64,000 bases of DNA, taken from NCBI GenBank assembly GCA_021781215.1, contig JAJXXC010000002.1, forward strand, positions 83,371-147,370. Reading direction: 5' to 3'. The stretch is from a bacterium. GTDB lineage: Bacteria; Patescibacteriota; Saccharimonadia; Saccharimonadales; DATKHC01. A program made the position numbers and the translations under genes. Every line of letters begins with the position of its first letter. Position 1 is the first letter of the stretch. Of this stretch, positions 14,001 to 46,160 are shown piece after piece. The notes beneath the pieces were generated by a model. The model saw only the letters and a program-made list of their open reading frames with translations, was not told where the DNA came from and did no database searches.

Positions 14001-14054
14001 AAATATAATCTTATATATAAAATCTGCTGATAAACTGGCCAAATTCAGTTTTCA

Positions 14055-15086
14055 TTATTTTAGTTTATTCTTAAATGATTCAATAATATCGACTGGGGTT
14101 GGATTAATACCGTTTAAAATAGCTAAATAGATACTGACAAAATCACCCAAAGCTATGCCATACATGATTTGATCTAATAAATCTTCACCCTTTAAATCTA
14201 TTACTTCAGCTGCCGGTTTCTTACCGGATAAAAGTTGCTCCGTAACTGCAAACCTCTTAAGTACCTTTGGGTTATCAAGACTCGATCTAAGTTCTATAAC
14301 TGCGTACGGTTTATCTACCGGGTGACTAGTCCATCCAATAAATTCGTTATGATTAAACTCTGGGAACTGATTAACCCACGATACTGTTTTGGCATTCTCA
14401 TTAATGCTGATTTTCCATTTATAGGCTACTGGGAAAAATTTAGCAGACGAATAAACTACGACGGATTTACCGATAATCTCAAGTGCAATTTGTTTGGCTA
14501 AATTACTGGACGTAGCCTTGGTTTCAATAAAATCATCTATTAGCCCCTCAAGTCTTAATGATGCCTCTTCAAGTTGGCCGACTAAACCAACAGATAATCC
14601 GGCTTGTTCTAATATCTCCGCGAGAGCTCGTAATTGATAACCAAAAGTCATTCTGGGTTGGTATCCACCGGGTAGTTTAATGCGTGGCAGCTTATATTCA
14701 TCGGCAATTTTCTCTAACTCTCCACCGCTACAAACCACAATAATCATTGGAGGCTGGTCAAGACTAAGTGCCTCATTTAAAATGCTCACGGTTTCCTCAG
14801 TATTTCCAGAATAACTAACTACCACCAATAGAGTGGTTACTGATGTATAACTTGGCAAGTGATAGTCCTGAACTATTTGAATAGGAAGTTTTGGATTTGG
14901 CCAGGTTGACAAAAATTTAGCTGCTAAACCAGACCCCCCCATTCCGGCAATAATCAAATTATTTACGGTTTTTGGTGGTGTCCATTTGAAACTATAGTCA
15001 TTTCTATATTGAGCGGGCTGTTTTCTGGTTATACCAAGTGAATCCTCACTATCTCTTGAATGAATCACTTTCAAATCATCTAGCAT
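14055..15086 (-). CDS. bifunctional phosphoglucose/phosphomannose isomerase (SIS domains)
   Basis: AGMGGSG and VSYSGNTEET are SIS motifs. The 343-aa length is typical of the archaeal/CPR-type PGI/PMI. Confidence 0.75.
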   Translation of the reverse strand: MLDDLKVIHSRDSEDSLGITRKQPAQYRNDYSFKWTPPKTVNNLIIAGMGGSGLAAKFLSTWPNPKLPIQIVQDYHLPSYTSVTTLLVVVSYSGNTEETVSILNEALSLDQPPMIIVVCSGGELEKIADEYKLPRIKLPGGYQPRMTFGYQLRALAEILEQAGLSVGLVGQLEEASLRLEGLIDDFIETKATSSNLAKQIALEIIGKSVVVYSSAKFFPVAYKWKISINENAKTVSWVNQFPEFNHNEFIGWTSHPVDKPYAVIELRSSLDNPKVLKRFAVTEQLLSGKKPAAEVIDLKGEDLLDQIMYGIALGDFVSIYLAILNGINPTPVDIIESFKNKLK

Positions 15087-31598: not shown

Positions 31599-32498
31599 CT
31601 ACTTCCTAAATGCGGTCTTAACCCTATCTATAGTACTAATAGTGTCATGCATATTATCTTTCAAAAAACTGCGCGAATATGGGATGGCAATAATAGCGAT
31701 GAGAATACCTGCGTAAACTGGCATCAATTTATTGCTAAAAGCAGTTTTTATACTGATCGGTTTTTTCCTAAAAGCAGGCGCAGAGCCAATTATTTCTCTT
31801 TTAAATAATCGATTAAGATAGTAGGCCGTTAAATAATAGAACAGAAATGTTACAAATAAATTATAGAATAGTCCTTGCTCAAGCCTTCTTCCCGAAGTAT
31901 AGGTTGAATTATTGTAGATAAATTTTACCCTACCACGTTTGCGGAGCTTGTGTAATAGATCGACTTCATCTCCAGCTTGTGGCAAATTAACATCGTATCC
32001 CTCCCATTCAGACTTCTTGAAGGCGATATTCGTGGCACTTAAATAAAATGGATGTCTGATTAAAAATTGAAGAAAAAACACGCTGCCAAATAAAAAAGGA
32101 GTATAGATTCGACCCCAACGAGGTCCAGTTATATATCTACACGGACCCCCAACAGCCACAATTTTGGAATTATTTTCAAAAGTAGCATTTATTTTAGTCA
32201 ACCAATCTTTTGAAAAAATCGTATCCGCATCAGTTGAAACTATAATTTCACCATTTGCATGTTCCGTGCCCGCCTGTCTGGCCCAACAGACACCCGGTTG
32301 TTTCTCGCTAACAACCTTAGCTCCGAAAGATTTTGCTATATTAACCGTGTCGTCGGTACAATTATTATCAACAATAATTATTTCAACATTCCCCTTAAAT
32401 GTCTGTTTTTTTAAAGATTCTAGGGTAGCGGCAATATAATTTTCCTCGTTATAACAAGGTATAACGATACTAAAGCGGGGTTTATTTAATTTATCCAT
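31599..32498 (-). CDS. family 2 glycosyltransferase with C-terminal TM segments
   Basis: FSIVIPCYNEE and STDADTIF (DxD) motifs. It lies 3 nt upstream of the deacetylase. Confidence 0.85.
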   Translation of the reverse strand: MDKLNKPRFSIVIPCYNEENYIAATLESLKKQTFKGNVEIIIVDNNCTDDTVNIAKSFGAKVVSEKQPGVCWARQAGTEHANGEIIVSTDADTIFSKDWLTKINATFENNSKIVAVGGPCRYITGPRWGRIYTPFLFGSVFFLQFLIRHPFYLSATNIAFKKSEWEGYDVNLPQAGDEVDLLHKLRKRGRVKFIYNNSTYTSGRRLEQGLFYNLFVTFLFYYLTAYYLNRLFKREIIGSAPAFRKKPISIKTAFSNKLMPVYAGILIAIIAIPYSRSFLKDNMHDTISTIDRVKTAFRK

Positions 32499-32678
32499 AA
32501 AATATTATTGATTTGACCAGCGTGCACCCTAAAAATAACTCATCTCAGTTTACAATAACTTTTGATAATTAGACACTAAAAATGTGATGTTTTTAGTAAT
32601 TATATTAAGCTACATAGAAATAATATAGCTCGACTCTAACGGTTAAGCATTGGGTCAGTATTATAACTTCTTTGTTTA

Positions 32679-33371
32679 TTATTTATCTTTTTTGAGTGCT
32701 AAAGCAGCGTCGTGTAGCTCATCGTATAGCTGACGGTTTTTTTGATTATCTCTCTCAAAAGTCTCACCGTCAGCCTTATCATATGCAGTCTTTAGTTTAT
32801 CGTATGCGTCTTTTAGACTTGGGTCCAGCCCTTCATTAGACGAAAGTACTACACCCATACTCCCAATACTGATTGGACATCTAAGCACTACATTGCCACC
32901 TGTTTTTCCCTCTTTTACTAATATATGGGCAGAAAGCTCTGTATCAAAAAGGCCAAGATTTATATTTCCTAGTCCATAACTTCTCAGCAGTTCAAGTACT
33001 TCGTCAATATTATCGTAAGAAAAAACAATGCTTGTTTCCAGATTATGCTCACTATCAAACATAGATCCAATTTCTATATCATTTGCGTTATCTGCAAATA
33101 TAATTGCCGTATCGGTAAACTCACGACTTCTTCCTTGCGCGTCTCGTCGTTCTGCTGCCTCTTTTAATCTATTTGATAACGACTTTGGAACAACTTCAGT
33201 CTCTACTACTTCACCCAAAGCGACTCCTTTGTTCTCAATGTCTCTTACATGATCTGGGTTTAATCCGTCGAGCTCTTGTGTGGCAGCCAATAATCCAGTT
33301 TTAGTTTCACCATCAATGCGCGGAAGCTCATGGATAGATTGATTACCAGGAAAATCCTCTATCGTACTCAT
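32679..33371 (-). CDS. hypothetical cytoplasmic protein (orphan)
   Basis: A 230-aa ORF with no signal peptide or TM segment. SD AAAGGGTA and an upstream promoter-like site are present. Confidence 0.6.
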   Translation of the reverse strand: MSTIEDFPGNQSIHELPRIDGETKTGLLAATQELDGLNPDHVRDIENKGVALGEVVETEVVPKSLSNRLKEAAERRDAQGRSREFTDTAIIFADNANDIEIGSMFDSEHNLETSIVFSYDNIDEVLELLRSYGLGNINLGLFDTELSAHILVKEGKTGGNVVLRCPISIGSMGVVLSSNEGLDPSLKDAYDKLKTAYDKADGETFERDNQKNRQLYDELHDAALALKKDK

Positions 33372-33423
33372 TTTTCATACCCTTTCAAAATTTTAATTAT
33401 TTTTTCTTTTTTGATATATCGCT

Positions 33424-33453
33424 ATTCTACTAGCGCTTAGACTATCCTGTCAA
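33424..33453 (-). promoter_or_regulatory. putative promoter TTGACA-N18-TAGAAT (minus strand) for 32679..33371
   Basis: The reverse complement of 33448-33453 is TTGACA and of 33424-33429 is TAGAAT. Confidence 0.4.
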
Positions 33454-33850
33454 TAAATAGCATCGCTCTATCTGGCAAGATACCTTAAGATACGAAACCC
33501 TGTATTCCTTAAGCTACCGGCATAATAGCTTGTATCCACTAGTAACGATAGTTGATTCTGCAAATAGTATTGAAAACTAACAAATGTGCGGATATAACGC
33601 CTTGATAACCAAGCTTAAGACCACTCAAGGACGTCAATGACTACAATCTTTTTAAGAATTATGCATCTTTAGATTGATCATTTTTTCATTGGTTGTATTC
33701 TCGGCAACTACTTTACTGGATTTTAGTGATTCAGAATTAGCAATATTATTTTATTTAAAAAATTATACTAGAACTTCAATGATTTATTGACTTGCATATT
33801 AAATTATCTGCATCTAAAGTTAGGATATAACAATAGATAGGGGATCTTAG

Positions 33851-35239
33851 ATGGACGAAAATGCTTCAGTTAAAAAAATATTTTCAAAACTTATGATTGA
33901 GCGAGTGCCTTCATACGCCAATAAAATATTCTACTCTCTAGGTTTCTTATCGATGATTTGCTTTACGATCCTAATTGTAACTGGGGTCATCATGGTATCC
34001 TTTGGCCCAAACTGGTGGCTGGTTAATGCTACTGGGCAATTTTTTCGAAGCATCCATCTCTGGGCTACTCAAGCCTTTGTTCTGTTTACAATTCTTCATT
34101 TATTAATTGTTTTTCTAACCTCGGGTTATAAGAAGCCTAGACGCTTAACTTGGGTGATTGGTGCCATAATGTTCTTTTTTGTTCTTATTGAGGCAGAATT
34201 TGGCTATGTTTTACGGGGAGATTTTTCATCACAATATCGGAGCCTCCAAGGTGCAGATTTATTTAATGGCAGTGGCATAGGCGGTTTTCTTAATGAGTTA
34301 AACTACCGACAAATCTTTGGATTGCACATAGTTGTTGTCCCACTACTCGTCTTGGGGTTATTGTTTATTCATTACGTTCTAATCAAAGCTAGGGGTATCG
34401 CCAAACCTTATCGACAAGATGTTAACTACACGGTAGTAAGGGCTAACCATAAAATATTATTCTTGCGAGGATTTATATTAATTCTGGCTATAGTTGGCCT
34501 GGCTGCTATCTTCCCATCACCATTCATTATTCCCACCTCAATTCAGGGTGTAGCCCAACAAGATCCGCAACTAATAAGCCAAACACTCGTCAAAGAATTT
34601 ACTAGAACCTCAGACACAGCCGCATATTTAGACAATATTGACCCATATAAATTTGATGTCAGGCAAGTATATATCGTCCAGCCTTATCAGAAATTAATGA
34701 TCGTCCAACACTCAGCAAACCAACTTAATATATTCGACGCAGAGTCAATAACAGCTCAAAACACACAGTTAGCGCAAGCAACCAGCTACTTTAATAACAA
34801 AATTAAACTACCGAAGCTTAATCCAGCTATAAATATAATCAACTCGCTCACCACTATGGCACAGTCTGGTTTATATGAGGCATCGCTGACTAACGCTAAC
34901 CCATCTGGAGATCAAACAACATATGCTCTACGTTTCCTTTCCGATACCGGCATCATGGATGCTAAGGCCCAAGCCCTCGGTATAACAACCCAGCAATATG
35001 GCATGCTACATGAAGAATCGAGCAAATTCCCAGTAGGGGCTTGGTGGTTGGCGCCGATTGGTTTATTAGACCACACTCTATTGGCTCATGATTCCAATGC
35101 TGACCGAGACGGAGCAGTTATAGTTGGCTTATCTATATTCGTCTTAATAGCATTCCCATACATACCATACTTTAACACCATACCGGATAAGCTTAAGGTC
35201 TATAAATTAGTTTGGCGTGAACGTAAGAGTAACCGATAA
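33851..35239 (+). CDS. cytochrome b (bc/b6-type N-terminal four-helix, di-haem motif)-like membrane protein with a large extra domain
   Basis: ILIVTGVIM, RSIH69-x13-H83, KKPRRLTWVIGAIMFF...FGYVL and LH159-x14-H174 are colinear with cytochrome b/b6 helices A-D. The C-terminal ~260 aa are unrelated and end in one more TM segment. Confidence 0.65.
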   Translation: MDENASVKKIFSKLMIERVPSYANKIFYSLGFLSMICFTILIVTGVIMVSFGPNWWLVNATGQFFRSIHLWATQAFVLFTILHLLIVFLTSGYKKPRRLTWVIGAIMFFFVLIEAEFGYVLRGDFSSQYRSLQGADLFNGSGIGGFLNELNYRQIFGLHIVVVPLLVLGLLFIHYVLIKARGIAKPYRQDVNYTVVRANHKILFLRGFILILAIVGLAAIFPSPFIIPTSIQGVAQQDPQLISQTLVKEFTRTSDTAAYLDNIDPYKFDVRQVYIVQPYQKLMIVQHSANQLNIFDAESITAQNTQLAQATSYFNNKIKLPKLNPAINIINSLTTMAQSGLYEASLTNANPSGDQTTYALRFLSDTGIMDAKAQALGITTQQYGMLHEESSKFPVGAWWLAPIGLLDHTLLAHDSNADRDGAVIVGLSIFVLIAFPYIPYFNTIPDKLKVYKLVWRERKSNR

Positions 35240-35254
35240 ACCACAACAACCTAT

Positions 35255-36991
35255 TTACCACATAATATTGATAAGACCTTGAGGCATATTTTCTGTCTCA
35301 TATTGGCCAGTACAACCCGTGCTGCTAGGCGGCAAGGTTGCGTGAAAAATTGAGCCAACAGAACCGTTGTTGGCAGTTATGTCAGAGAATTTAACAGCTG
35401 ACTGATGTATGTTGCTGCATGATGATCCGGTGCTGTATCGTTCATGAAATGTAGCAGATTTTGTATCTAACATTCCGATCTGGGCAGGGGTAGTAATACT
35501 ACCAATTATAGACGACACTTTAGTAGAGGTATCGATTACTGATGCAGTCCAGGTATTGATAAAAGCTGATTTATTAGTCAGCTCTAGTTTTAAATCATAG
35601 GTATGATTTATTAACCAATTATATTTTATTTCTGACGAATAATAAGTTTTATCACCCTGGCTACCAGAGGTATTATATCCCGGACCACTCGAGGAGAGAG
35701 ACCCCCAAATTGTAAATTTAGCCGTTTTACCCGACGATCCCTGTCCCACAGTCTCTAGCCCAAGATATCCCGTAAAAGAATCCGAAGCCTTAGAAAAATA
35801 AAATTGATTAGCAAAAAGGTATCCGTCAGGCGATCCATCTGATACTGGTGTTATATTTGCATCCATTCCGGTTAAGCCCTGGGTAGTTTCGGGCCAGTAC
35901 CAATAAGTATTATCAAAATATATTGCGTTTGTTAATGCTTGAGTGCTTGAGCCATTAAAAATTTTTGGAGCTACTGCCACGACCTGACTTACCGTAGAAT
36001 TATTGGCCACTACTGTCCCGGTGGTTGCCGACTGATTTGAACTAGTTGTCGCCGCAGGACTACAATTGCTTAAACTACTGACTTTTACTGGACTGGTCCA
36101 GGCTGCAGAATAACTGGTATCAGGTAGTGGCCCCAAGGCTATAGAGTCTCCTGCCGGTAAATTATCTAATGCATTGTCTGCCGTCATCCAGGCCCCAGCC
36201 TGGTCTTGCGATGACCCAGTAGCCAACGTACCGTCATAATTCCACGCTGAGCCTAAATCAATAATTTGATTACTATTCAACCATGCGGCGGCGTGAGGCG
36301 AGTATGCCCCACTCTGCATTTCGGGGACATAACTAGGCGTTACCATGGCTACATAAACATTTACTGTTCCGCTAATGGCGCCAGGGCTTTGACATGCATA
36401 GGAATAAAAAGTCGAGTTGGTGTAGGCCGATTGACCACTGGCCGAATATTTTACAACGTTAGCCTGATCGGCTACAACCTTAGCTTGATCATTTTTGTAA
36501 GCTGTTACCAGTGTGGTTTCTGCCGCCAAATCGCTCTTTAAAATATCATTTTTATGAGCCAAAATCGTCCTATCACTATTAACTCTTTCTAGAATGTTTG
36601 GGTTTCCAGCATTCGGACCAGAAGCATATGCAACTTTTGCATTTGCGAAAGCTTTTGATGCAACGTTAACCGCCTCTTGGTCAGACTGGACTATCTTTTC
36701 CTGCAAGGTAAGGAGAGATTGGTCTTCTGCAACCGCTGATTGATCAGTCGCTAGTTCGTCCTCTGATGTTTGAAGAATAGTCAAACTTGCTGTTGAATAT
36801 GAGCTAGCTGCAACTATGGGATTTTGAACACTTTTGCCCAAATAATCGTATGTATAACTCGATGCCTTTGATCCACCGGTAACATCAAAAATATAGACAC
36901 CAATTCCGATCATAGAGATTATGGCAGCCACCATAGTAATGAATTCAACGCGCGAGAAATCTTTGAAATTTAGTTTTTTAAGAAATGCCAT
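35255..36991 (-). CDS. large surface protein: prepilin-like N-terminus, coiled region, C-terminal lectin-like beta module
   Basis: The N-terminus is MAFLKKLNFKDFSRVEFITMVAAIISMIGIGVYIF. The C-terminal ~170 aa are homologous to the ectodomain of 43467..44768. Confidence 0.7.
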   Translation of the reverse strand: MAFLKKLNFKDFSRVEFITMVAAIISMIGIGVYIFDVTGGSKASSYTYDYLGKSVQNPIVAASSYSTASLTILQTSEDELATDQSAVAEDQSLLTLQEKIVQSDQEAVNVASKAFANAKVAYASGPNAGNPNILERVNSDRTILAHKNDILKSDLAAETTLVTAYKNDQAKVVADQANVVKYSASGQSAYTNSTFYSYACQSPGAISGTVNVYVAMVTPSYVPEMQSGAYSPHAAAWLNSNQIIDLGSAWNYDGTLATGSSQDQAGAWMTADNALDNLPAGDSIALGPLPDTSYSAAWTSPVKVSSLSNCSPAATTSSNQSATTGTVVANNSTVSQVVAVAPKIFNGSSTQALTNAIYFDNTYWYWPETTQGLTGMDANITPVSDGSPDGYLFANQFYFSKASDSFTGYLGLETVGQGSSGKTAKFTIWGSLSSSGPGYNTSGSQGDKTYYSSEIKYNWLINHTYDLKLELTNKSAFINTWTASVIDTSTKVSSIIGSITTPAQIGMLDTKSATFHERYSTGSSCSNIHQSAVKFSDITANNGSVGSIFHATLPPSSTGCTGQYETENMPQGLINIMW

Positions 36992-37110
36992 GTCTTTATT
37001 TCATAGGATGCTTACGGTTATATAACTTAAGCTTAACTGAAGATTAGGGTTCACACAAGTTAACATCTAGGCAAACAACATTAGACGCTCAGGATAGTAG
37101 GGACCAAGAC

Positions 37111-37425
37111 CTATTCATCAACCTTTTCCAAAAAAACCCTGTTACTAAAACCACCACGCAAGGACTTTTTTTCTTTTCTTGCAGACTCTATTTGATTAGT
37201 TGTAAACCCAAGTTTTTTACCAATAGCATATATTACCTCCAGAACATCGGCTAATTCTTCTAGTGAAGGGTTGTCTTTTAACTCCTGGGCTTCCTCAAAA
37301 AGTTTATCTATTAAGGCTATTAAATACTCTTTTTCATCTGACAAAATACGTGTATAAGGGATATCGCCATTAGCTTTAATTATATTGGGGATTTTATCTC
37401 TGACTAATTTATTGTAGGTCTTCAT
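37111..37425 (-). CDS. MazG-like nucleoside triphosphate pyrophosphohydrolase (small all-alpha type)
   Basis: YNKLVRDKIPNII...EEAQEL...EELADVLEVIYAI shows the EExxE/D pattern. The length is 104 aa. Confidence 0.75.
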   Translation of the reverse strand: MKTYNKLVRDKIPNIIKANGDIPYTRILSDEKEYLIALIDKLFEEAQELKDNPSLEELADVLEVIYAIGKKLGFTTNQIESARKEKKSLRGGFSNRVFLEKVDE

Positions 37426-37507
37426 TGTTAATTTAATTATTTAACTTAAACAAAAAATTAACAAGCACGAAGTTAATCTACGCCACATCAATCTAAATTT
37501 AAATGTC

Positions 37508-38128
37508 TTAGGTATTTATTTTATTCGCAAATACAACTAGTCTACTTGAATAGGTTTTATTATCCGGGTTCCATATCCCTTGACAGGTAATAATATTGAG
37601 ATGAGATAAATTATCGGTTGATGCGAATATATTTTTATCACTCTGACTAGGCGTGTAAATCTTTAGATCAACTACCACGAAAGATACGACCATATTATTA
37701 TTCTCTACAACCCTAATCAAGTTACCCTTATTTAGTTTATTTAGGTCATTAAATACCGCGGGCTCTCCATTTATCCAAAATCCATAATGCCCATCAATGA
37801 CCGAGCTCCCAATCTCTCCGGGGCGCGGACCTAAATTGAACCAAGCCCCGTTATTCCTACCGATTGGTACATCCATTGCGCCGTTACTGGCGATGCCCAC
37901 TGATTCTAGATTAATTGCAAGACTAATAGACGGTATAAGCAGCTTAACGGGAATGCCATATATAGGCAAAACTACCGGTTTGGTATTGATTTGTTTGCGG
38001 TATGTATTGGCGGTCGAAGCTATAGACGGAGAAATAGTTCGATATATACCTAGGCTAATAATGGGTACAAGCAATATCAACAATATGGTAAATCTAGCCG
38101 ATTTTTTATTTAAAAGGCTACTAGACAT
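37508..38128 (-). CDS. sortase-family transpeptidase
   Basis: An N-terminal TM anchor, then His (VIDGHYG), the catalytic Cys in LNIITCQG and Arg in SSRLVVFA. Confidence 0.85.
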   Translation of the reverse strand: MSSSLLNKKSARFTILLILLVPIISLGIYRTISPSIASTANTYRKQINTKPVVLPIYGIPVKLLIPSISLAINLESVGIASNGAMDVPIGRNNGAWFNLGPRPGEIGSSVIDGHYGFWINGEPAVFNDLNKLNKGNLIRVVENNNMVVSFVVVDLKIYTPSQSDKNIFASTDNLSHLNIITCQGIWNPDNKTYSSRLVVFANKINT

Positions 38129-38163
38129 TGTGTTACTAAACGCTTAGCTTAGCCTGAGTAGTC

Positions 38164-39000
38164 TTAGATATTTCGTCTTTTAGCGATATATAGTGACAAA
38201 ACGGCAACAATACCCCCAATGGCAACTAGGTCTTGCCATAAATATCCATTTTGTATTTGTGGGCCCGCACCGGTGTTGGGTAATTTAGGCACGACAGTAA
38301 CCGAGCCGAAAACAGATTTAGCTAAACAAGATGATCCAGTTATAGTATTACTATCCAACGTGACGGCTCCTGTTTGGGCTAAAGCACGACCATTTAAACT
38401 TGCACCAGTCTGCAAACTAATTGATGTTAGTGCCAATATATTACCAGTCAGTGACGTGTTTGTCCCTAGAGTCGCAGAGCTAACTACTCTCCACCAGACA
38501 TTACATGAATCACCGCCCAACACATTAGCTGAGCCGGAAGTTATAAGTGTCGATGCCGACTTAAAAATCCACACCCCACTGCCAGAAAGCGTCAAAGTTC
38601 CCGAAAGCGCAAAGGCGTCCGCGCAGTAAACTCCTGCTACAAGATTCAATCCAACCAAATCTTTCGTACCAGCATAGGTTGTAGTACACCCCTGATCAAG
38701 CGCACCAAATGCGGCCGTATCTGAAGTTTGTGCCGAAAGAGAATCGGCGGCATTACGAATTGTTCCAGGCGGCCCAACAATTCCCGGGGGAAAACCTGTC
38801 GGCAATCCGCCGGTACTTATGCCTAAGTCTCCAGGCATAGTTGTATTACCAGTATTGGTTACGGTAGTATTTCCTAATACCGAATAGCTGCCGACCGTAC
38901 CTAGCGTAGGTGATGTTGCGGCAAATACTTGTCCTACAACCCCTAGGCCCAAATAAGTCGTTAGAACACTTAATATTAATAGCTTGTTAATGTTCTTCAT
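38164..39000 (-). CDS. LPXTG-anchored ice-binding-like (DUF3494) surface protein
   Basis: Signal peptide; LGTVGSYSVLGNTTVTNTGNTTMPGDLGISTGGLPTGFPPG matches the DUF3494 N-terminal pattern; a C-terminal LPNTG (38269-38283), TM segment and KRRNI tail. Confidence 0.8.
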   Translation of the reverse strand: MKNINKLLILSVLTTYLGLGVVGQVFAATSPTLGTVGSYSVLGNTTVTNTGNTTMPGDLGISTGGLPTGFPPGIVGPPGTIRNAADSLSAQTSDTAAFGALDQGCTTTYAGTKDLVGLNLVAGVYCADAFALSGTLTLSGSGVWIFKSASTLITSGSANVLGGDSCNVWWRVVSSATLGTNTSLTGNILALTSISLQTGASLNGRALAQTGAVTLDSNTITGSSCLAKSVFGSVTVVPKLPNTGAGPQIQNGYLWQDLVAIGGIVAVLSLYIAKRRNI

Positions 39001-39229
39001 AGTGGTCTTCTTTCTTGGCTATTTAGCCAATTGGATTAAATATTTTACCATCAGACTACTTATCAATTTTTAAAGTTACTAGGATTATCTTTGATGCTCA
39101 CTAATTACGCTGCATGAACTTTCATGTTGTCATTATTTCAACGTTTATTTATATTATACTCCTTCGTACAGCTTTTAACTAAATAATTGAAATTGACCCT
39201 TATTAGATATGCAGATTTTCGTTTGAAGA

Positions 39230-39931
39230 CTATATTGTTTTACAGTGTTCAATTAGCATTTTTAGCTTCTCTGGAACAAAAATTCCACTATATGGCTCAA
39301 CTTCTATGCTTGTTGAGACAAGAAGTTGATCAAATGCTCCAGTATAATCACGAATATTATCTATGCTTATACCGCTTGCTACTGCTAGCTTTTTATCACC
39401 AATAGCCTGCTTCATAGCTTTAATCTTTTCTGGTCTTGGTGGTTTTCCGGTGCCTTTGCCACTAGTTGTGACCACATCAACATAAGGCATAAGATTCCTG
39501 GTCTCGATTACGGCTTGTTCTGTATTATCAGTGTAGGTTTGAGTGTATTTAAATGCGACTCCTCCAAGATAAAGTATTCTCGCAAGCTCTTGATGTTTAT
39601 GGCGTAGACTAACTAATTTGTCTTTATTCGGAATAGCGTCATCTGTCCATATACCATCTGGGAGCCTCGCTATATCGCCAGATTTAAATCGTGTATTAAT
39701 AAGTGAAAATGCACTTTCTGCAGAAGTAAGTTGCAAAAGATTTAAACCAATAAATCTGTATAGCTTTTCATCAGCAACTCCGTTATATGCCGAAAATAGT
39801 AAGTTGGTGTCGGGATTATGGTGGTCAATCAAATAGACCCCATTAGCTCCCGCCTCGAATGCGGGGGCCGCTTGATCCATTGCTTGCGACACTTCATTTA
39901 CGTGAACCACCGGGAATATTTCTATTGCCAT
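39230..39931 (-). CDS. BtpA/SgcQ-like TIM-barrel protein (tentative)
   Basis: IFPVVHVNE...GANGVYLIDHH...VDVVTTSGKGTGKPPRPEKIKAMKQAIGDKKLAVASGIS resembles the BtpA family layout. The assignment is from memory only. Confidence 0.4.
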   Translation of the reverse strand: MAIEIFPVVHVNEVSQAMDQAAPAFEAGANGVYLIDHHNPDTNLLFSAYNGVADEKLYRFIGLNLLQLTSAESAFSLINTRFKSGDIARLPDGIWTDDAIPNKDKLVSLRHKHQELARILYLGGVAFKYTQTYTDNTEQAVIETRNLMPYVDVVTTSGKGTGKPPRPEKIKAMKQAIGDKKLAVASGISIDNIRDYTGAFDQLLVSTSIEVEPYSGIFVPEKLKMLIEHCKTI

Positions 39932-39978
39932 AGTCTAATACTGACAGTAACAAAATTTAAATCAAGCATAGGCTTTAC

Positions 39979-40005
39979 AGGCACAACGTCGGTTGAGGCT
40001 AGAAC
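39979..40005 (+). repeat. intergenic element copy A (most diverged)
   Basis: AGGCACAACgtc-GGTTGAGGCTAGAAC. A CAAGCATAG box sits at 39963-39971. Confidence 0.6.
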
Positions 40006-40063
40006 GATCTTAGCAAATTTAAATCGCATCAATATAAAATGAGCCGTAACCACTGTGGCTAAC

Positions 40064-40558
40064 TTACTTAGAAGATTCCTGAAGTCGACGACTAAACCAT
40101 GTCTCCATACCTACTACGTTTCCCGCATAGTAAGAGGTGTTGCCTGGCACAACTACAATTGACTCAGCAAATAGCCTCGAAGAAATGCGCATAATATCAG
40201 CAACTGATCCCCTAAAGTCCGAATTAATTCTTCCCGAATTCATAAGACTTTGAATTTTCTCTATGCCAGAAGTATCATTACTGAAACCACTATCCTCCGT
40301 TGAAGCAACTTTTGCCACCGCATCGCTATACTCTAATAAGCCTACCCACTCTTTTCTCAGCTTTTCGGGTAGTTGGATAGGGCGAACGTCTCTAAGATAT
40401 ACTGCAGGATTTCTTAATACTATTTCAGCACCATTATCTGGTTCAATATTTGCAGCATAAAAATCAGCCCATTCTAAACCAACCTGTCTCTGAAGCTCGC
40501 CGAGTTGAGCAGGATTATTTGCTAGTTCTGGGGCTGATAAATGTTTTTTACTTTCCAT
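40064..40558 (-). CDS. hypothetical cytoplasmic protein (orphan)
   Basis: The track start at 40597 is a TTG. The ATG at 40558 (MESKKHLSAPE) is preceded by TATTAT-N7, so I prefer it. Confidence 0.6.
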   Translation of the reverse strand: MESKKHLSAPELANNPAQLGELQRQVGLEWADFYAANIEPDNGAEIVLRNPAVYLRDVRPIQLPEKLRKEWVGLLEYSDAVAKVASTEDSGFSNDTSGIEKIQSLMNSGRINSDFRGSVADIMRISSRLFAESIVVVPGNTSYYAGNVVGMETWFSRRLQESSK

Positions 40559-40602
40559 GATATTAATAATACTAGCATAAGCTTGATGTATTGTCAATGT
40601 CG

Positions 40603-40631
40603 TGATGCATAATACTGGCTGAGGTCAGAAC
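40603..40631 (+). repeat. intergenic element copy B
   Basis: TGATGCATAataCTGGCTGAGGTCAGAAC. Confidence 0.65.
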
Positions 40632-40661
40632 TTTCTATTTAATTAGATACAATTGTCCGAG

Positions 40662-41201
40662 CTAAAGCATGAACACATCTTCAGATATTTTGGGTGCTTT
40701 CGAGCCATTATAACTAAATGAAGCCTGATATTTGGTTAATTTAATCAGGTCTCTAATTGTATGCAAATAACCCTTACCTAACCTGTGTTTTTTATCAAAC
40801 ATATGCTCTTCAATGGGTTCTGAGCGTTCAGTTTGATGTTCAACCATTATTTTTAGTTCATCAGACAAATGTATTCTTAGGCCCATATTAAAAAGGGGCA
40901 TGTCTCTTTGATTTATTTTGAAAGGTTCAAATAATATATCGTCTTTTACCCTGGAGTCATGTAAGTCAACATCGTCCATTAGTTCATTGTCAAAAGCGTT
41001 AGTAATATCTCTAAGAATTAACTTAGCAACTTTCCTTGTACGTCTGGGTGAAAATTCTACTCCATTTTCATAAACTCTCGCTTTTGCTCCAGATTCTAAA
41101 GCTTCGTTCAGCGCTATAAATCCAAGCTTTGCTGCTCGTAATTCTTGGTCTGTTTCCAGTATTAAAACCGAATTTATACCATCATTGTTTTCAAGTCTCA
41201 C
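40662..41201 (-). CDS. hypothetical cytoplasmic protein (orphan), GTG start
   Basis: A 179-aa ORF with the SD AGGAGA 9 nt upstream of the GTG. I recognise no domain. Confidence 0.6.
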   Translation of the reverse strand: MRLENNDGINSVLILETDQELRAAKLGFIALNEALESGAKARVYENGVEFSPRRTRKVAKLILRDITNAFDNELMDDVDLHDSRVKDDILFEPFKINQRDMPLFNMGLRIHLSDELKIMVEHQTERSEPIEEHMFDKKHRLGKGYLHTIRDLIKLTKYQASFSYNGSKAPKISEDVFML

Positions 41202-41266
41202 TTTGGTTATATTCTCCTACGATAGATAATGATATATCTATTGTTTATATACAAGCATAGTCGTTT

Positions 41267-41295
41267 TGGTACACCGCGCTGGTTGAGGTTAGAAC
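41267..41295 (+). repeat. intergenic element copy C
   Basis: TGGTACACCgcgCTGGTTGAGGTTAGAAC. A CAAGCATAG box sits at 41252-41260. Confidence 0.7.
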
Positions 41296-41328
41296 CAAAT
41301 TGAAACAAATTAATTTTGTAACAGCAGG

Positions 41329-41357
41329 TTGACAAGACATCAATCTTATGCTAATAT
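41329..41357 (+). promoter_or_regulatory. sigma70-type promoter TTGACA-N17-TAATAT, -10 ends 6 nt before ATG 41364 (leaderless)
   Basis: The sequence reads ggTTGACAagacatcaatcttatgcTAATATgtagacATG. Confidence 0.7.
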
Positions 41358-41363
41358 GTAGAC

Positions 41364-42410
41364 ATGGAACAATTCAATGCCTCTAACGAATGGGGCACTA
41401 AAAAACAAATATCAGCCCTAGAAAATCCAATCAGTGAGTTTAATGCTCGTGGTGGGATGGATCTGGATAAATACCGAGCGCTTGAAGAACATCTAGCAAC
41501 AGAACACCCAGATTTAGGCAAAGAACAATGGGCAAAAATTCAGAAACTATTACCAAAATTTGAATTAATGGAAGATTCTGAGACCGGTCAAAAAATACGT
41601 ATTCAAAGATTTAATTGGCCGGAAAACGGTGATGTTTCTGAGCAAATTGTTACTTTCTCCAATATGCCATTTAGCGTATCTTTGGATCCAAAACATATTC
41701 AATACCAACACTATTTGGTTGCTAAAGAATTAAATACACCCTTTTTAGTATTCGAAAACCCTGCATATGGTGATTCAGATAAACTTACCAAGGAACAAAA
41801 AGAAGCTCTAAAAAGTAGTGGAGACTTCAGTCCTGTTGCAAATACTATGCTTGGTATAGCAAGTGCGCTGGGTACTCATAAAGCTAATTTCATTGGTTAC
41901 TCAATGGGTGCTGAAACTTCAGCCGCAATGGCCGCCAATGCTTCCAGTCACAATATTGAAGTAGAAAATTTGTTTGTCATGGAAGGTCCTGGTGTTCAAC
42001 CCCGCGAATCCCGAAAAGAAAAAAAGGATTTAGGCAAGAATTTTATAGGAGACACCAATAATCTTAGGTTTACATGGGCAAACCCAGTCGATCCCGTTAT
42101 GCGTGAAATTGCTAAACTTGGAATGCCAATTCCACACGGACTTTTGAGTTATGGAATGGCAATGACAAAAGGAACCCAAGAAAATAGTCTTAGGAAAGCT
42201 CTTGAGACACAGCCTGGTATGCATTTAACTGTTGCCTCAGCTAGAGCTAGTAAGATTAGCCCCGCAAACACCAATAACGATTTATTCAATAGATTACGTT
42301 CAGATTATCCAGAACGTTCTATTAGAAGAATCATTATCCCGGGTGAAAGTCATGCGTATGGCGACTCGGGCGAGAGATATGCAAATCTCAGTAGGTTAGT
42401 TTTGCAATAA
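41364..42410 (+). CDS. alpha/beta-hydrolase-fold protein (orphan)
   Basis: Nucleophile elbow GYSMGA, a C-terminal PGESHAYGD (candidate His), and no signal peptide. Confidence 0.65.
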   Translation: MEQFNASNEWGTKKQISALENPISEFNARGGMDLDKYRALEEHLATEHPDLGKEQWAKIQKLLPKFELMEDSETGQKIRIQRFNWPENGDVSEQIVTFSNMPFSVSLDPKHIQYQHYLVAKELNTPFLVFENPAYGDSDKLTKEQKEALKSSGDFSPVANTMLGIASALGTHKANFIGYSMGAETSAAMAANASSHNIEVENLFVMEGPGVQPRESRKEKKDLGKNFIGDTNNLRFTWANPVDPVMREIAKLGMPIPHGLLSYGMAMTKGTQENSLRKALETQPGMHLTVASARASKISPANTNNDLFNRLRSDYPERSIRRIIIPGESHAYGDSGERYANLSRLVLQ

Positions 42411-42466
42411 ATTTATATTTTATGTGTAGCTGCATAAAGTTAATTTAAGTTATGCTTAGATGTTCA

Positions 42467-42495
42467 TTGACATATTGTAGTATCTAGTATATTAT
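42467..42495 (+). promoter_or_regulatory. sigma70-type promoter TTGACA-N17-TATTAT, -10 ends 6 nt before ATG 42502 (leaderless)
   Basis: The sequence reads caTTGACAtattgtagtatctagtaTATTATatgtacATG. The geometry is the same as at 41329-41364. Confidence 0.65.
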
Positions 42496-42501
42496 ATGTA
42501 C

Positions 42502-43308
42502 ATGAAAAATGAGTTATTGGACCGGTCAGATACAAGGTTAGATTTTGATGCTGCACTGTGCATGAGTCAAATAATAAAACAAAAAGTTGACAGTAGGGCA
42601 GAATCTCAACAAATTTTGCAAGAAGCTAAGCAAGGAAATTTCTTTAAAACTTATCAAAAAAGAAGTCTTGCAAAGGGCTGGATAAGGTCCGCTGACGCAG
42701 ATATTGCATCAATGCAAAAAAAAGCAGAAGAAGAATACGAGGCTTATTCTAAAATAGATAGATCCAGTGAAGCCAAGAGCTTTATCGAATCCGTCACATC
42801 TAGGGCGCGAATGCTTGGTAATCAAGATATTGCGAGTGAACTTGAATATTTTCTTGCAATGAGTCCCCGGGAAAAAATACTACACGCGGAACCCTCTCTA
42901 CTTGCATCAGTTATAGAAACGATTTCTTTAAGTATTGCTAATACAAAGAAAAAACAGAAAGATGTTACGATAAAACTTTTCGAAGGTAAAGAAATTTACG
43001 GCTGGAATCCTTTGTCAGACATTATTGACGGTGAAAGTTATCATGAATCACGAGGTGTGGTAAAACCAGATACAGCAATAATTAGGGACGTTTATAGTCT
43101 TATAGGTTTTGATAACCGCCTTAGTGATATCCCAACTGATATGCCTGGTTTTCGTAGAGTGTTTCCAAGACTCAAACGAATATCGCCCCTATTATCTGTT
43201 GGTGGAGTTACACTAACATTTGATTTGTGGGGTCCAACAGAACATGGTGGTGAAGAATTACGGTACTACCCAGGTAATATAAACCTCACAATTAGTAGGT
43301 CACAATAA
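42502..43308 (+). CDS. hypothetical cytoplasmic protein (orphan)
   Basis: The track start at 42496 abuts the -10 hexamer. The ATG two codons later fits the promoter geometry. I recognise no domain. Confidence 0.6.
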   Translation: MKNELLDRSDTRLDFDAALCMSQIIKQKVDSRAESQQILQEAKQGNFFKTYQKRSLAKGWIRSADADIASMQKKAEEEYEAYSKIDRSSEAKSFIESVTSRARMLGNQDIASELEYFLAMSPREKILHAEPSLLASVIETISLSIANTKKKQKDVTIKLFEGKEIYGWNPLSDIIDGESYHESRGVVKPDTAIIRDVYSLIGFDNRLSDIPTDMPGFRRVFPRLKRISPLLSVGGVTLTFDLWGPTEHGGEELRYYPGNINLTISRSQ

Positions 43309-43375
43309 GTTTGTTTTATTATGTTACCGATTCGAAAGTAATGTGCGCAGGGTGGCGTAAAGATACCTAGATCTA

Positions 43376-43404
43376 TGGTGCACCACACTGGCTGAGGTTA
43401 TAAC
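43376..43404 (+). repeat. intergenic element copy D
   Basis: TGGTGCACCacaCTGGCTGAGGTTATAAC. ATGGTGCACC is identical to 44784-44793, the plus-strand image of the tRNA-Arg 3' end. Confidence 0.7.
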
Positions 43405-43466
43405 TATTTTGATGAGAGTGATTCGAATATTCTATAGCATCCGTAGTAAGAAAATAAGCTGATCAT

Positions 43467-44768
43467 GTGTTATATACTGTGATAAGTATCATTAATCCTC
43501 AAGCCTTAAATATTAAGATTATCAAAACCAAAAAAGTACAAACAAAACGTAAAAACTCCTTAAATAAATTATCGTTATTAATATTAGACTTCGTTTTTGT
43601 TCTTATTTTAAGTAATCCTGCATATGCAATGGCTAATGTTCAAAACACTTACACAAACATATATATGCCGGCTAGTAATCTTACGGATGTTTCGCATGAA
43701 GTAACTATTAACAATGTCCCCAACCTTGGTTCCGCTGACTTTTTTTGGTCAGATAACTTGTATTTTAATGGTGCGCCTAGCAATGGTACCGCCTATTTTG
43801 GCATTCAGGGTATCAACAGAGCTTTATTTTCTGTTTTTGACTACCCTAGTACTGAGGCATCCTCAAACTGTACGGTTCAGCAATCTGGTTTCGACGGCGG
43901 TGTCTACGCTTACGGTGGAACATCGTGCATAATTAACTACACAATAACGCAAGGACATACCTATTTACTCACCGTAACGGATGTGGGTCGAGATTCACAA
44001 GGGATAAACTGGCAGGCTAGTGTAGAGGATTTAACTACTGGTATAACTACTAACATTGCGACCGTCAATATTGCCACAAGCTGGGGAACGCTAACCAGTA
44101 CCCAAGATGCATGGACTGAATGGTTTGGACCGGTTCCAGCTAGTTGCTCAGCATTGCCTTATTCAAACGTCACATTTTCAAATTTTACTGCCAATAACGA
44201 TCAATATAGTACTCCAAGCTCTCACATCGACACACTTCAAACAGGAACAGGTTGTAGTGGTTATTCGCAAATAGTTGACACTAGTAATAATTCTTTTAAC
44301 CAAATAATGGGTATCAACCCACCGATAACCAATACAATCGTGCCATACAGTCCTCCTGTTACGCCTCCACCAATCACGACAACTACTATACCAACTAGTA
44401 CTGGTACACTGGATCCGACCAAATCAATCTCTAAATCTTCGACAACAACCAGCAATATAAAGACATCTAGTATGGTAAAGAAACCGAATAGGAATTTAAA
44501 TAAATCCTATATCGTTGGTGGCATTATCTTAATTATTATAATTTTAGGTAGTGTTTTGATTGCTAGGTTTATTCTACGGAAGAAAAAATTAGCACTACTG
44601 TCGAATTATTATGATTTACGTTCTTCTCCAAAAAAATTTGTTCCAGACAATTCAGTAGAATCAAAACCAACCATAGAAAATAACTCCACGAGTAGTACTA
44701 CACCCGTATCCTTGCAACCAATTATCGCAAATCCGATAAATGAAACATTAGAACCGCCAAAAGATTAA
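43467..44768 (+). CDS. type I membrane-anchored surface protein with lectin-like beta module and P/T-rich stalk
   Basis: Signal peptide (LSLLILDFVFVLILSNPAYA), an ectodomain homologous to the 35255..36991 C-terminus, a PPVTPPPITTTT stalk and a C-terminal TM segment followed by RKKK. The GTG start is uncertain (43467 or 43479). Confidence 0.7.
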   Translation: MLYTVISIINPQALNIKIIKTKKVQTKRKNSLNKLSLLILDFVFVLILSNPAYAMANVQNTYTNIYMPASNLTDVSHEVTINNVPNLGSADFFWSDNLYFNGAPSNGTAYFGIQGINRALFSVFDYPSTEASSNCTVQQSGFDGGVYAYGGTSCIINYTITQGHTYLLTVTDVGRDSQGINWQASVEDLTTGITTNIATVNIATSWGTLTSTQDAWTEWFGPVPASCSALPYSNVTFSNFTANNDQYSTPSSHIDTLQTGTGCSGYSQIVDTSNNSFNQIMGINPPITNTIVPYSPPVTPPPITTTTIPTSTGTLDPTKSISKSSTTTSNIKTSSMVKKPNRNLNKSYIVGGIILIIIILGSVLIARFILRKKKLALLSNYYDLRSSPKKFVPDNSVESKPTIENNSTSSTTPVSLQPIIANPINETLEPPKD

Positions 44769-44784
44769 ACAAGCACAAGCGTCA

Positions 44785-44861
44785 TGGTGCACCCGGCAGG
44801 ATTCGAACCTGCGACCTTCGGCTCCGCAAGCCAACGTTCTATCCAGCTAAACTACGGGTGC
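44785..44861 (-). tRNA. tRNA-Arg (anticodon GCG by my reading), CCA encoded
   Basis: Hand fold: acceptor GCACCCG/CGGGTGC, anticodon stem TTGGC/GCCGA with loop TT-GCG-GA, and T-arm GCAGG-TTCGAAT-CCTGC. The length is 77 nt. Confidence 0.88.
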
Positions 44862-44912: not shown

Positions 44913-45440
44913 TTATAGCCCAATTTTTTTCATAAATATGTCTATTGGATCATGGGAAACTGGTTCCATGGGTAGAAATTCGCTCAATAAGGAGATTATC
45001 CGATTCCTGTCTTGGGGTTCAAAATAAATTGTTTTATTTGGAATCAGACGCTTAACTGATGTTAGCGCGATATGGTCTAGCCCATCTTCCGACACTATGG
45101 TATATGATTTAAATTCAGAGAAGGGGTAGTCTACGCTGTTAATAACAATGCCCTTAGTGTCTAATGTATAGTGTACTTCTCGTGGCTTTCGGGTAGCCAT
45201 ATAACAAAGCGCAAGACCCAGTATAAAAACAGCGGTTGTTGAAAAAATACTTTTAGTAAATAAGTATACTAGAAAACTTATGACCACTATTGACACAAAA
45301 AAAAGTAGATACCAGTTAATATTTTTAGAATTGTCGATAAATTCTGAGGCTGTCCAGGCTATGGAATCATTATTTTTTTTAGGAAATTGCCCAGCTAAAG
45401 CAGGGTCATTTTCTGGTGTAAAATGATTTTGTTCATCCAT
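44913..45440 (-). CDS. two-TM membrane protein with a C-terminal bPH-like domain (tentative)
   Basis: Two TM helices are followed by a ~90-aa soluble domain. The ATG at 45440 is preceded by TACAAT-N6. The track start is 45446. Confidence 0.55.
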   Translation of the reverse strand: MDEQNHFTPENDPALAGQFPKKNNDSIAWTASEFIDNSKNINWYLLFFVSIVVISFLVYLFTKSIFSTTAVFILGLALCYMATRKPREVHYTLDTKGIVINSVDYPFSEFKSYTIVSEDGLDHIALTSVKRLIPNKTIYFEPQDRNRIISLLSEFLPMEPVSHDPIDIFMKKIGL

Positions 45441-45544
45441 AAGCATATTGTACTTTAAGTTACACTAATGAACATAATTTTTTAAAATATACGATTATGA
45501 TATCGCGGAATAGAATATATTTTGATATAATTACAACCTGTTAT

Positions 45545-45637
45545 GGAGAGGTACCCAAGTGGTTGAAGGGGGCAGTTTGCTAAATTGCTAGGGGGAGGAA
45601 ACTCCCCGCGAGGGTTCGAATCCCTCCCTCTCCGCCA
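45545..45637 (+). tRNA. tRNA-Ser (anticodon GCT), CCA encoded
   Basis: Acceptor GGAGAGG/CCTCTCC, anticodon stem GCAGT/ATTGC with loop TT-GCT-AA, a long variable arm, and T-arm GAGGG-TTCGAAT-CCCTC. The length is 93 nt. Confidence 0.9.
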
Positions 45638-45714
45638 TAACTTATTAGCTATGCCCCATCCCGTAGGTCATCTCGGCGGTAGTATCTGTCGCCATACATG
45701 ATATCGTAGAGATA

Positions 45715-46101
45715 ATGATTTCTACCCAAAGAAAAGGCGACATTGCAAAAGCAAAAGCTATTAGCACCTTTACATCTTATGGTTTTGACGTATCCTTACC
45801 AATTACAGAGTCCGCAGCATATGACATTATCGTTGACGTGAATAACGTTCTGTACAGGGTTCAGGTAAAGTATTCGTCAAAAAAAGAAGTCGATCTTAGA
45901 AGAATTCATTCTAATTCAAAAGGTTATGTGATTAAAAAATATGAAGAAGCGTCTTACGACTGGCTATATGTATTCAGATTGGATGGAAAAGAATTTCTAA
46001 TAACAGATGTGCGTCATAATCAAAGCACAATAACCCCGCAGAATAAACATTCTATTGATTCTTATTTTAAGGAGAGGTGCCCGAGTGGTTTAAGGGAATA
46101 G
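45715..46101 (+). CDS. PD-(D/E)XK-type endonuclease-like protein (group I intron-associated endonuclease family, tentative)
   Basis: RKGDIAKAKAISTFTSYGFDVSLPITESAAYDIIVDVNNVLYRVQVKYS shows the D...QVK layout of that family. The last 31 nt overlap tRNA-Ser(TGA). Confidence 0.55.
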   Translation: MISTQRKGDIAKAKAISTFTSYGFDVSLPITESAAYDIIVDVNNVLYRVQVKYSSKKEVDLRRIHSNSKGYVIKKYEEASYDWLYVFRLDGKEFLITDVRHNQSTITPQNKHSIDSYFKERCPSGLRE

Positions 46102-46160
46102 TCTTGAAAACTATCATATCTGAAACGGTATCGTGGGTTCGAATCCCACCCTCTCCGCCA
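46071..46160 (+). tRNA. tRNA-Ser (anticodon TGA), CCA encoded
   Basis: Acceptor GGAGAGG/CCTCTCC, anticodon stem ATAGT/ACTAT with loop CT-TGA-AA, a long variable arm, and T-arm GTGGG-TTCGAAT-CCCAC. The length is 90 nt. Confidence 0.9.

Follow-up and report, generated by a model that had tools for sequence, protein, structure and literature searches.

Saccharibacteria and other bacteria of the candidate phyla have very small genomes with few recognised mobile elements, and how they gain accessory genes is poorly known. We have analysed a 64-kb stretch of low-GC (~37%) DNA from a Saccharibacteria genome (hereafter the window, whose sequence corresponds to contigs of assembly GCA_021833525.1), in which an intergenic element of 29 nucleotides (nt) recurs in a block of small genes on the 3′ side of the gene for tRNA-Arg(GCG). 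A preliminary description of this DNA offered two readings of the element, as an operator or activator site shared by the enclosed genes or as att-type direct repeats left by serial integration at the tRNA. The evidence set out below speaks against the first and for the second: the elements are probably hybrid attachment sites, scars of the att type left by one integration after another at the 3′ end of tRNA-Arg, and the locus is a hot spot of gene gain and loss.

The tRNA-Arg(GCG) gene occupies 44785-44861 on the minus strand and is the putative integration target, with an attB-like end whose bases at 44785-44793 (TGGTGCACC on the plus strand) form the core that it shares with the element. 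Scored against a profile built from 27 copies, the four copies in the window, all on the plus strand, differ in preservation. Copy D (43376-43404), nearest to the tRNA, consists of the core TGGTGCACC and the arm ACACTGGCTGAGGTTATAAC and scores 33.8 bits; copy C (41267-41295; core TGGTACACC) scores 29.3 bits and copy B (40603-40631), with a partly decayed core (TGATGCATA), 26.9 bits. Copy A (39978-40005) keeps the right arm GGTTGAGGCTAGAAC alone, is weak (7.2 bits, E = 1.7) and is probably a decayed copy and old scar that forms the outer limit of the recognisable array. A search of the 64 kb with the core pattern returned exactly these four sites, every one on the plus strand, and none of 100 shuffled sequences gave four (shuffle means 0.31 and 0.83). 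These results bear out the earlier account of four intergenic copies in one orientation, with no further copy in the window, and the coordinates and sequences given there (with copy A at 39979-40005) are all correct. As had also been noted, the 10-mer ATGGTGCACC of copy D (43375-43384) is found again at the acceptor end of tRNA-Arg (44784-44793). The core of copy C, TGGTACACC, matches a variant of tRNA-Arg (...GGGTGTACCA) in a distant relative, L036 (related loci are referred to here by L numbers).

The copies divide the block into packets of one or two genes. Directly past the tRNA lies a packet (43405-44784, plus strand) that encodes a 433-amino acid (aa) secreted, membrane-anchored protein (43467-44768) with a weak match to DUF3472; this surface protein gene is the immediate neighbour of the tRNA, and no integrase gene lies at the tRNA-proximal end in the window. 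Between copies C and D (41296-43375, plus strand) a gene for a 348-aa alpha/beta-hydrolase (41364-42410) is followed by a 270-aa gene (42496-43308). The packet between B and C (40632-41266, minus strand) holds a 179-aa gene (40662-41201), and that between A and B (40006-40602, minus strand) a 164-aa gene (40064-40558) with a promoter at 40597-40569. Three near-consensus promoters are present among the enclosed genes, and the two genes between C and D each have one of the form TTGACA-17-TAnnAT (41329-41357 and 42467-42495). The enclosed genes had been described as orphans, which is true of the 179-aa gene, for which no family was found, and not of the hydrolase, which has 39 homologues in Saccharimonadales.

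The element family and its link to tRNA 3′ ends

Relatives of the locus were reached first through the homologues of the hydrolase and later through a conserved gene on the 5′ side of tRNA-Arg, which encodes a 177-aa membrane protein (44913-45446, minus strand) and served as a fixed flank for locating the equivalent site in other genomes. Element searches used a profile and then a degenerate exact pattern, and the resulting family comprises 35 non-redundant copies in 19 loci, with the consensus TGGTGCACCACGCTGGCTGAGGTTAGAAC; the element is therefore not confined to the genome of the window. The degenerate pattern matched two Saccharibacteria genomes and one chance sequence among species-representative genomes, which makes the family a narrow one, and about ten genuine metagenome contigs; further metagenome matches (L016, L017, L018, L023, L024 and L027) were rejected as chance matches, and viral contigs gave one chance match and none that was genuine. 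The element is absent from the distant relatives L036 and L042 (40% identical), the former of which has a terminator hairpin 3′ of the tRNA. A search of the literature on Saccharibacteria found no earlier description of such a system.

Copies within arrays are 240-2100 nt apart, with a maximum of six in 4.2 kb (L028), and each locus with several copies has them in one orientation only. The 20-nt arm is ~90% conserved across species whose proteins are 45-82% identical; positions 10-12 of the element are the most variable, and the sequence past the arm and past a box on the core side (see below) is unrelated from copy to copy. As a side observation, one stretch to the right of the element (TTAATTAGGAAAACTCGCCCGTCAAAACCACTAC...) is 86% conserved between L020 (99-191) and L005 (13054-13146), where the neighbouring genes are different; in L005 its last bases enter a called gene (13132-14361). 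In the window and ~400 kb of related loci the element occurs in arrays only, and these lie behind a tRNA 3′ end wherever the tRNA is visible.

The tRNA is visible in 12 loci, and in all 12 the array is on its 3′ side, with the reverse complement of the element (GTTCTAACCTCAGCCAGCGTGGTGCACCA) co-oriented with the tRNA. Ten of these loci involve tRNA-Arg(GCG) (the window, L005, L007, L015, L021, L032, L033, L034, L037 and L041), among which L034 has a packet directly after the CCA end at the same site, and two involve tRNA-Tyr(GTA) (L013 and L028). The first 9 nt of the element are the antisense of the tRNA end and vary with it, the tRNA sequence being GGTGCACCA for Arg and CTGCACCA for Tyr. Thus tRNA-Arg ends ...CCGGGTGCACCA and the Arg-linked elements end ...GTGGTGCACCA, and tRNA-Tyr ends ...CACCCTGCACCA and four of the six Tyr-linked copies of L028 end CTGCACCA, the copy closest to the tRNA having 12 nt in common with it. 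Cores of the form GGTGTACCA, including that of copy C, match the tRNA-Arg variant of L036. Identity between element and tRNA is confined to 9-12 nt; the other 20 nt differ, including a 5-nt difference in length, and the tRNA itself remains intact with the island on its 3′ side.

A minus strand that ends ...GGTGCACCA, as the tRNA does, raises the question of whether the element marks where a small structured RNA ends, or serves as a signal for processing or termination, for instance a minus-strand tRNA-like 3′ end. Copies A and B follow minus-strand stop codons, and a 5-bp stem, CTGGC/GTTAG, can be drawn within the element. However, although it is 90% paired, the stem shows no two-sided compensatory change and is equalled by shuffled sequences; the element has no Rfam match (only tRNAs were matched); and the spacing exceeds that of a tRNA 3′ half by 5 nt, with no T-stem partner and no run of T. 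On inspection a true tRNA 3′ half is also set aside by a missing T-loop purine. We regard an RNA-level function as extremely improbable.

The box on the core side, CTTATG or CATAAG, is found at up to 25 nt from the core in 8 of 31 full copies and on the arm side in none of the 31, against a background frequency of 1.7%. The boxes described earlier beside copies A to C are present as reported (CAAGCATAG at 39963-39971 and 41252-41260; CTAGCATAA at 40572-40580) and belong to this recurrent pattern. In the window they form the TRTG −16 region of minus-strand promoters, and elsewhere the box is also found 3′ of the tRNA itself (L005, L007 and L015), which places it at the start of each inserted packet. 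Its most likely role there is that of a promoter (−16 TRTG with a −10 box), of a second half-site or of both.

This recurrent box is one of several features that would suit a shared operator or activator site co-regulating the enclosed genes: the starts of minus-strand genes follow copies A to C at 45-66 nt, 5 nt separate the end of copy B from a perfect TTGACA downstream of it, and TGGTGCACCA is a 10-bp palindrome. The preliminary description placed such a site in the −35 region, a proposal that does not survive comparison between copies. The strand of the promoters and their distance from the element are not fixed (copy C is 33 nt from the −35 box of a gene on the opposite strand), the flanking genes run in either orientation, the strong promoter at 42467 has no element, and copy D, like many copies elsewhere, lies past the ends of genes or between convergent genes. 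The Tyr-linked copies have lost the palindrome. Sites for a regulator would be expected before the members of a regulon, whereas in the window and the ~400 kb of related loci the element is found only in the arrays, exactly at breakpoints of homology and behind tRNA genes, so that we consider co-regulation highly improbable. Sigma-54 and extracytoplasmic function (ECF) sigma factor promoters were also considered for the element and rejected, as no conserved partner box lies downstream.

Flank switches at the core and variable gene content

Comparison of related contigs locates the points at which homology begins and ends. In two separate samples, L021 (2757-3421) and the reverse complement of L030 (1-665) are 100% identical over a 285-aa gene and its upstream flank as far as TGGTGCACC; past these bases L021 continues into the body of the tRNA and L030 into the arm of an element and a hydrolase packet. 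As a whole, L030 is a circular permutation of the L021 array, as would be expected of an excised circle of ~4.2 kb or of a tandem copy. An assembly chimera does not account for the switch, nine shared bases being too few to cause one. A second pair, L029 (744-1341) and L034 (1252-1849), is 100% identical over 598 nt. The identity begins exactly at GGTGCACCA, and what comes before it is an element in L029 and the tRNA in L034. L033 and L034 match at 100% over the 1260 nt that lead up to the CCA end of the tRNA and are unrelated past it, and between L026 and L005, and between L022 and L031, homology starts or stops within 3-6 nt of the edge of the core.

These junction pairs, the polymorphism between strains and the co-variation of core and tRNA support the proposal that the copies are att-type direct repeats from serial integration. 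They also bear on the simplest alternative, that the copies are chance matches or decayed fragments of a local tRNA gene duplication that involved no mobile DNA. The weakness of copy A and the loose similarity to the tRNA beyond 9 nt speak for this alternative; yet the shuffles never reproduce four matches, the arm is conserved across species while differing from the tRNA by an insertion or deletion, and the junction pairs match at 100% identity in the flanks that they share. Chance or local duplication is already refuted in practice.

Gene content varies accordingly on one side of the tRNA. The 5′ side of tRNA-Arg is syntenic (the 177-aa gene, two tRNA-Ser genes, HSP20 and type IV secretion system pilin genes) in genomes in which the 177-aa protein is 82-31% identical, whereas the 3′ side carries different genes in each genome. 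The preliminary description had proposed comparing strains for a variable block with breakpoints at the element; such a block is what the comparison reveals, with 3′ content that differs from genome to genome and switches at the core (L021/L030 and L029/L034). The packet genes of the relatives encode hydrolases, a glyoxalase, a metallo-beta-lactamase-fold protein, a serpin, toxin-antitoxin pairs and many proteins without assigned function. Toxin-antitoxin packets (PemK-type and YafQ-type) are located at L005 15631-16241 and 17365-17900, L031 4513-5064, L032 12450-13006 and L041 5694-6304. Toxin-antitoxin pairs also recur in large chromosomal integrons.

Several further observations concern the genes of the window. 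The −10 boxes within 41329-41364 and 42467-42504 end 6-7 nt before an ATG (at 41364, and at 42502 rather than 42496), no ribosome-binding site lies between these boxes and the ATG codons, and the mRNAs of the hydrolase and the 270-aa gene are probably leaderless. The 164-aa gene and the hydrolase gene have homologous promoters and first codons (40490-40602 on the minus strand versus 41296-41440 on the plus strand; 78% over 45 nt, 88% over 25 nt of coding sequence), and the encoded proteins start with KKHLSAPE and KKQISALE, respectively. This homology forms an inverted repeat with a spacing of 700 nt that flanks the 179-aa packet. Homologues of the hydrolase gene lie within the type IV secretion cluster in three other contigs (L007 10001-11623, L008 6432-8054 and L033 2024-3508), between TrbL-like and PrgI-like genes and each with its own TTGACA-17-TAATAT promoter, and another (L009) lies 37 nt past tRNA-Asp. 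The hydrolase gene is a mobile one and may serve as cargo or accessory of the secretion system.

Beyond the array, the part of the window between a conserved glycosyltransferase gene (31599-32498) and copy A (32500-39950) has no counterpart at the equivalent place in L005, L031 and L032, apart from weak matches to two small L031 genes. It contains genes for a cytochrome-b-like protein, a 578-aa protein, a sortase, an LPXTG ice-binding-like protein and a BtpA-like protein, and the variable island may extend ~7 kb past the last recognisable scar. On the other side of the tRNA, tRNA-Ser(gct) and tRNA-Ser(tga) (region 45545-46160) are separated by a PD-(D/E)XK endonuclease gene (45715-46101), the end of which overlaps the second tRNA-Ser by 30 nt. 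The same tRNA-Ser pair is just 11-20 nt apart in L007, L032, L033, L034 and L037, which identifies the endonuclease stretch as a separate insertion of ~430 nt, common to the window and L021.

Site geometry and a candidate recombinase

Searches of the 64-kb window by tblastn with an XerC-like protein and the serine recombinase described below as queries found no tyrosine or serine recombinase, in agreement with the preliminary description, which had counted the lack of an integrase against serial integration. A weak match left of copy C (E = 0.3-4) was discarded, being driven by the arm alone and containing a stop codon. That objection is answered by a related array, L041, which encodes a 508-aa protein with Resolvase and Recombinase domains, that is, a large serine recombinase. 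The last 11 codons of its gene (...GQARWLRLEPLY) run through the arm of an element, and a gene in L043-45 that is 80% identical ends in the same arm-like sequence. The protein family has 235 homologues at E < 1e-20, several of them in named Saccharimonadales; viral contigs yielded only a relative with 30% identity.

The C-termini of this family carry a record of the tRNA. Among 113 full-length homologues, 67 end ...LVxxxG[IFLV]EP... and most of the others ...TR[IL]ELVT..., tails that correspond to the antisense translation of the acceptor and T-arm of a tRNA. A broader count across proteins P0070-P0186 likewise finds that the last 12-23 residues represent an antisense-translated tRNA 3′ half (GIEP, GFEP, GLEP, GVEP or TRIEL) in ~100 of the 113. 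In antisense the tRNA-Arg of the window translates to LVHPAGFEPATFGSASQRSIQL, and P0122 and P0123 end NLVHPAGFEPTTFSTAN and ...GIEPATFGTGNRRSIQLS, respectively; the tail LVHPAGFEPTTF of P0122 matches the antisense translation LVHPAGFEPATF of the window tRNA-Arg. Recombinase genes of this family therefore abut tRNA 3′ ends and read into them.

Seven family members end ...LVG..WNQIKRELITMWQIV... instead, and this second type of tail connects with a 121-nt long form of the element, found at L005 15412-15532, 17910-18030 and 19774-19894, L031 4329-4449 and L041 6402-6522 and absent from the window. Copies of the long form are 88-92% identical to one another and have the same core at the start and a variant half-site, GGCTTGGAAC, at equal spacing. 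The long form translates to LVHLPDTAWNQLKKELIRWHETFQ..., the same kind of tail as that of the seven members, and one that is found in 533-aa variants of the recombinase. Since the long form encodes a recombinase tail, the attachment site extends across the end of the gene for that enzyme, and one tail would be exchanged for another on integration.

The arrangement of the 29-nt element can be compared with what is known of serine-integrase sites, in which the zinc-ribbon domain binds a 9-bp motif at half-site positions 16-24 in attP and 11-19 in attB, a shift of 5 bp (PMC3783163). By sequence inspection, GGTTAGAAC ends at position 29 of the element and its T-loop counterpart GATTCGAAC at position 24 of the tRNA antisense strand; within these, TTAGAAC occupies element positions 23-29 and TTCGAAC tRNA antisense positions 18-24, 5 nt nearer the core. 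Element and tRNA in this respect show the distal-motif shift of serine-integrase sites, and the implied site centre is the TGCA of the shared core. The 29-mer accordingly appears to behave as a core joined to one attP-type half-site, the other side being fused to whatever lay behind the tRNA.

A different class of enzyme could in principle have made such sites. On this alternative they would be sites for a tyrosine recombinase encoded elsewhere in the genome, whether a tRNA-targeting integrase, a hijacked Xer system or an integron-like enzyme, with the L041 serine recombinase as a mere passenger. Most islands in tRNA genes use tyrosine integrases (PMC4383910). One-gene units between short direct repeats resemble integron arrays or dif modules, and an XerC/D-like gene is present in a related genome (L009). 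Nevertheless, no tyrosine recombinase is encoded in any array or in the window, and a search of 120 nt on both sides of 29 copies for an attC-like hairpin exceeded z = 2 in just four (L019, L005:11125, L028:3040 and window copy D), leaving 25 of the 29 without inverted partner or hairpin. A dif- or Xer-like 11-6-11 site was likewise rejected, as no such arm symmetry is apparent on inspection. The 5-bp offset of the distal motif and a recombinase gene that ends through the arm are specific to a serine integrase, and a tyrosine recombinase seems unlikely.

Proposed mechanism and comparison with known systems

In the mechanism that we propose for attachment-site scars, small circular packets, each of one or two genes with their own promoters, would recombine site-specifically with the end of the tRNA gene. 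A scar would comprise the 9-nt core, antisense of the 3′ end of tRNA-Arg(GCG) (GGTGCACCA), and a 20-nt arm from the incoming DNA that loosely mimics the tRNA T-arm. The crossover would fall within the shared core and so leave the tRNA intact; the packet would land directly past the CCA, with core and arm remaining at its far end. New arrivals would push earlier packets outward and build up an array in one orientation, in which the outer copies would be the oldest and most decayed, in the order D, then C, B and A. The most probable enzyme is a large serine recombinase of the family common in Saccharibacteria, with the 3′ end of its gene spanning its own attachment site. As no recombinase is encoded in the window, the packets here would be relics or be moved in trans.

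Several points weigh against this account. The window and the packet genes of most related arrays contain no recombinase, L041 being the sole exception, and the link to a serine recombinase is circumstantial, consisting of that one array, the overlap with the gene end and the geometry of the site. The core beside the L041 recombinase gene, moreover, reads TGGTCAAGC and not TGGTGCACC. The two half-sites of attP in serine integrases show imperfect dyad symmetry; here the other half-site is weakly conserved, represented by the CTTATG/CATAAG box in the 8 of 31 copies, and an inverted 29-nt partner arm, seen in L019, L020 and L030 and beside the tRNA in L021, is asymmetrically spaced, with GTTCTAAC ~9 nt farther out. 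Copy A is weak, L030 could be a tandem duplication rather than an excised circle, and no variation was found among four or five assemblies of the window strain. Serine integrases normally recombine attP with attB only, and repeated insertion at a hybrid tRNA junction needs relaxed specificity, as in staphylococcal Ccr, or another route.

A broader proposal, which we put forward tentatively and think rather doubtful as it stands, is that this clade of Saccharibacteria runs an integron-like form of gene capture with a serine recombinase in place of IntI. Packets of one or two genes with promoters of their own, but without a recombinase, would enter, leave as circles and be shuffled at the 3′ end of tRNA-Arg or tRNA-Tyr through a recombinase acting in trans, and the tail of the recombinase would be rewritten by recombination. 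A native tail (...WNQIKRELI...) encoded across attP would become an antisense-tRNA tail (...GIEPVT...) after integration, a swap that could act as a built-in directionality switch.

The locus is a defined hot spot where small packets of genes accumulate one behind another and pass between strains and species. Surface proteins, toxin-antitoxin pairs and the hydrolase that other genomes carry inside the type IV secretion cluster are among what the packets encode. For annotation, a block of apparently orphan genes is explained as horizontally acquired cargo. The site is short and well defined and a candidate enzyme family is at hand, which makes the system directly testable. If the enzyme is confirmed, site and integrase would provide a natural landing pad for the genetics of bacteria that are hard to manipulate.

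Islands in tRNA genes flanked by partial-tRNA direct repeats, including tandem arrays, have been described with Islander (PMC4383910) and as the tycheposons of Prochlorococcus (10.1101/2020.12.28.424599). The locus resembles these in its integration at a tRNA, in the outward displacement of older elements by newer ones, in its accessory cargo and in the degraded repeats scattered through the variable island of a streamlined genome. Their repeats, however, are displaced tRNA fragments of ~40 nt, usually with a tyrosine integrase beside the tRNA, whereas here the direct repeat is not a true copy of the tRNA 3′ part: 9-12 nt are tRNA sequence, the remainder forms a conserved arm that is distinct from the tRNA and offset by 5 nt, and the enzyme is likely to be a serine recombinase.

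An attC site is an imperfect hairpin with paired R′′/R′ and L′′/L′ boxes, IntI is encoded beside attI, and integron cassettes are promoterless and co-oriented. Integron arrays are like the present ones in having units of one or two genes, bounded by a recombination site in one orientation and shuffled between genomes, and in the toxin-antitoxin units of related arrays. They differ in that for 25 of 29 copies here the 120 nt on either side contain no complementary partner that exceeds z = 2, and so no attC hairpin; in that the window and arrays contain no tyrosine recombinase, hence no IntI, and no attI with a common promoter; and in that the genes lie on both strands with promoters of their own, three of them strong ones within the block.

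In staphylococci, Ccr serine recombinases move the SCC (staphylococcal cassette chromosome) and pseudo-SCC composite islands, which occupy the 3′ end of rlmH (orfX). Both systems have insertions behind a conserved gene, at its 3′ end, driven by a serine recombinase (putatively so here), as well as tandem accretion, short direct repeats between elements and many units without a recombinase, which is then supplied in trans (again putatively here). In the present case a tRNA gene takes the place of a protein gene as target, the units are smaller by a factor of 10-50, and the host phylum is unrelated.

Closest in the nature of the site are the att sites of serine integrases such as A118/LI, Bxb1 and phiC31 (Rutherford et al., 2013; PMC3783163). 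Both are short and need no accessory arm sites, have identity limited to a few bp around the centre and leave hybrid scars after integration; here short identity at the crossover coincides with exchange of flanks (9-nt TGGTGCACC, in two pairs of contigs at 100% identity). Relative to the target half-site, the element half-site has its distal 9-bp motif displaced outward by ~5 bp, and a related array encodes a Resolvase and Recombinase protein of ~510 aa. They differ in that no recombinase is encoded by or next to the site in the 64-kb window, and in that the packets are tiny (0.6-2.1 kb) rather than phage genomes. Insertions are repeated at one site here, whereas hybrid sites are not substrates of the canonical enzymes, and the attachment site overlaps the end of the recombinase gene, so that the C-terminal tail would change on integration. 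Overall the locus, which has no local enzyme, lacks the defining features of integrons and of classical partial-tRNA repeats and, as far as its bases can tell, would bear those of serine-integrase sites.

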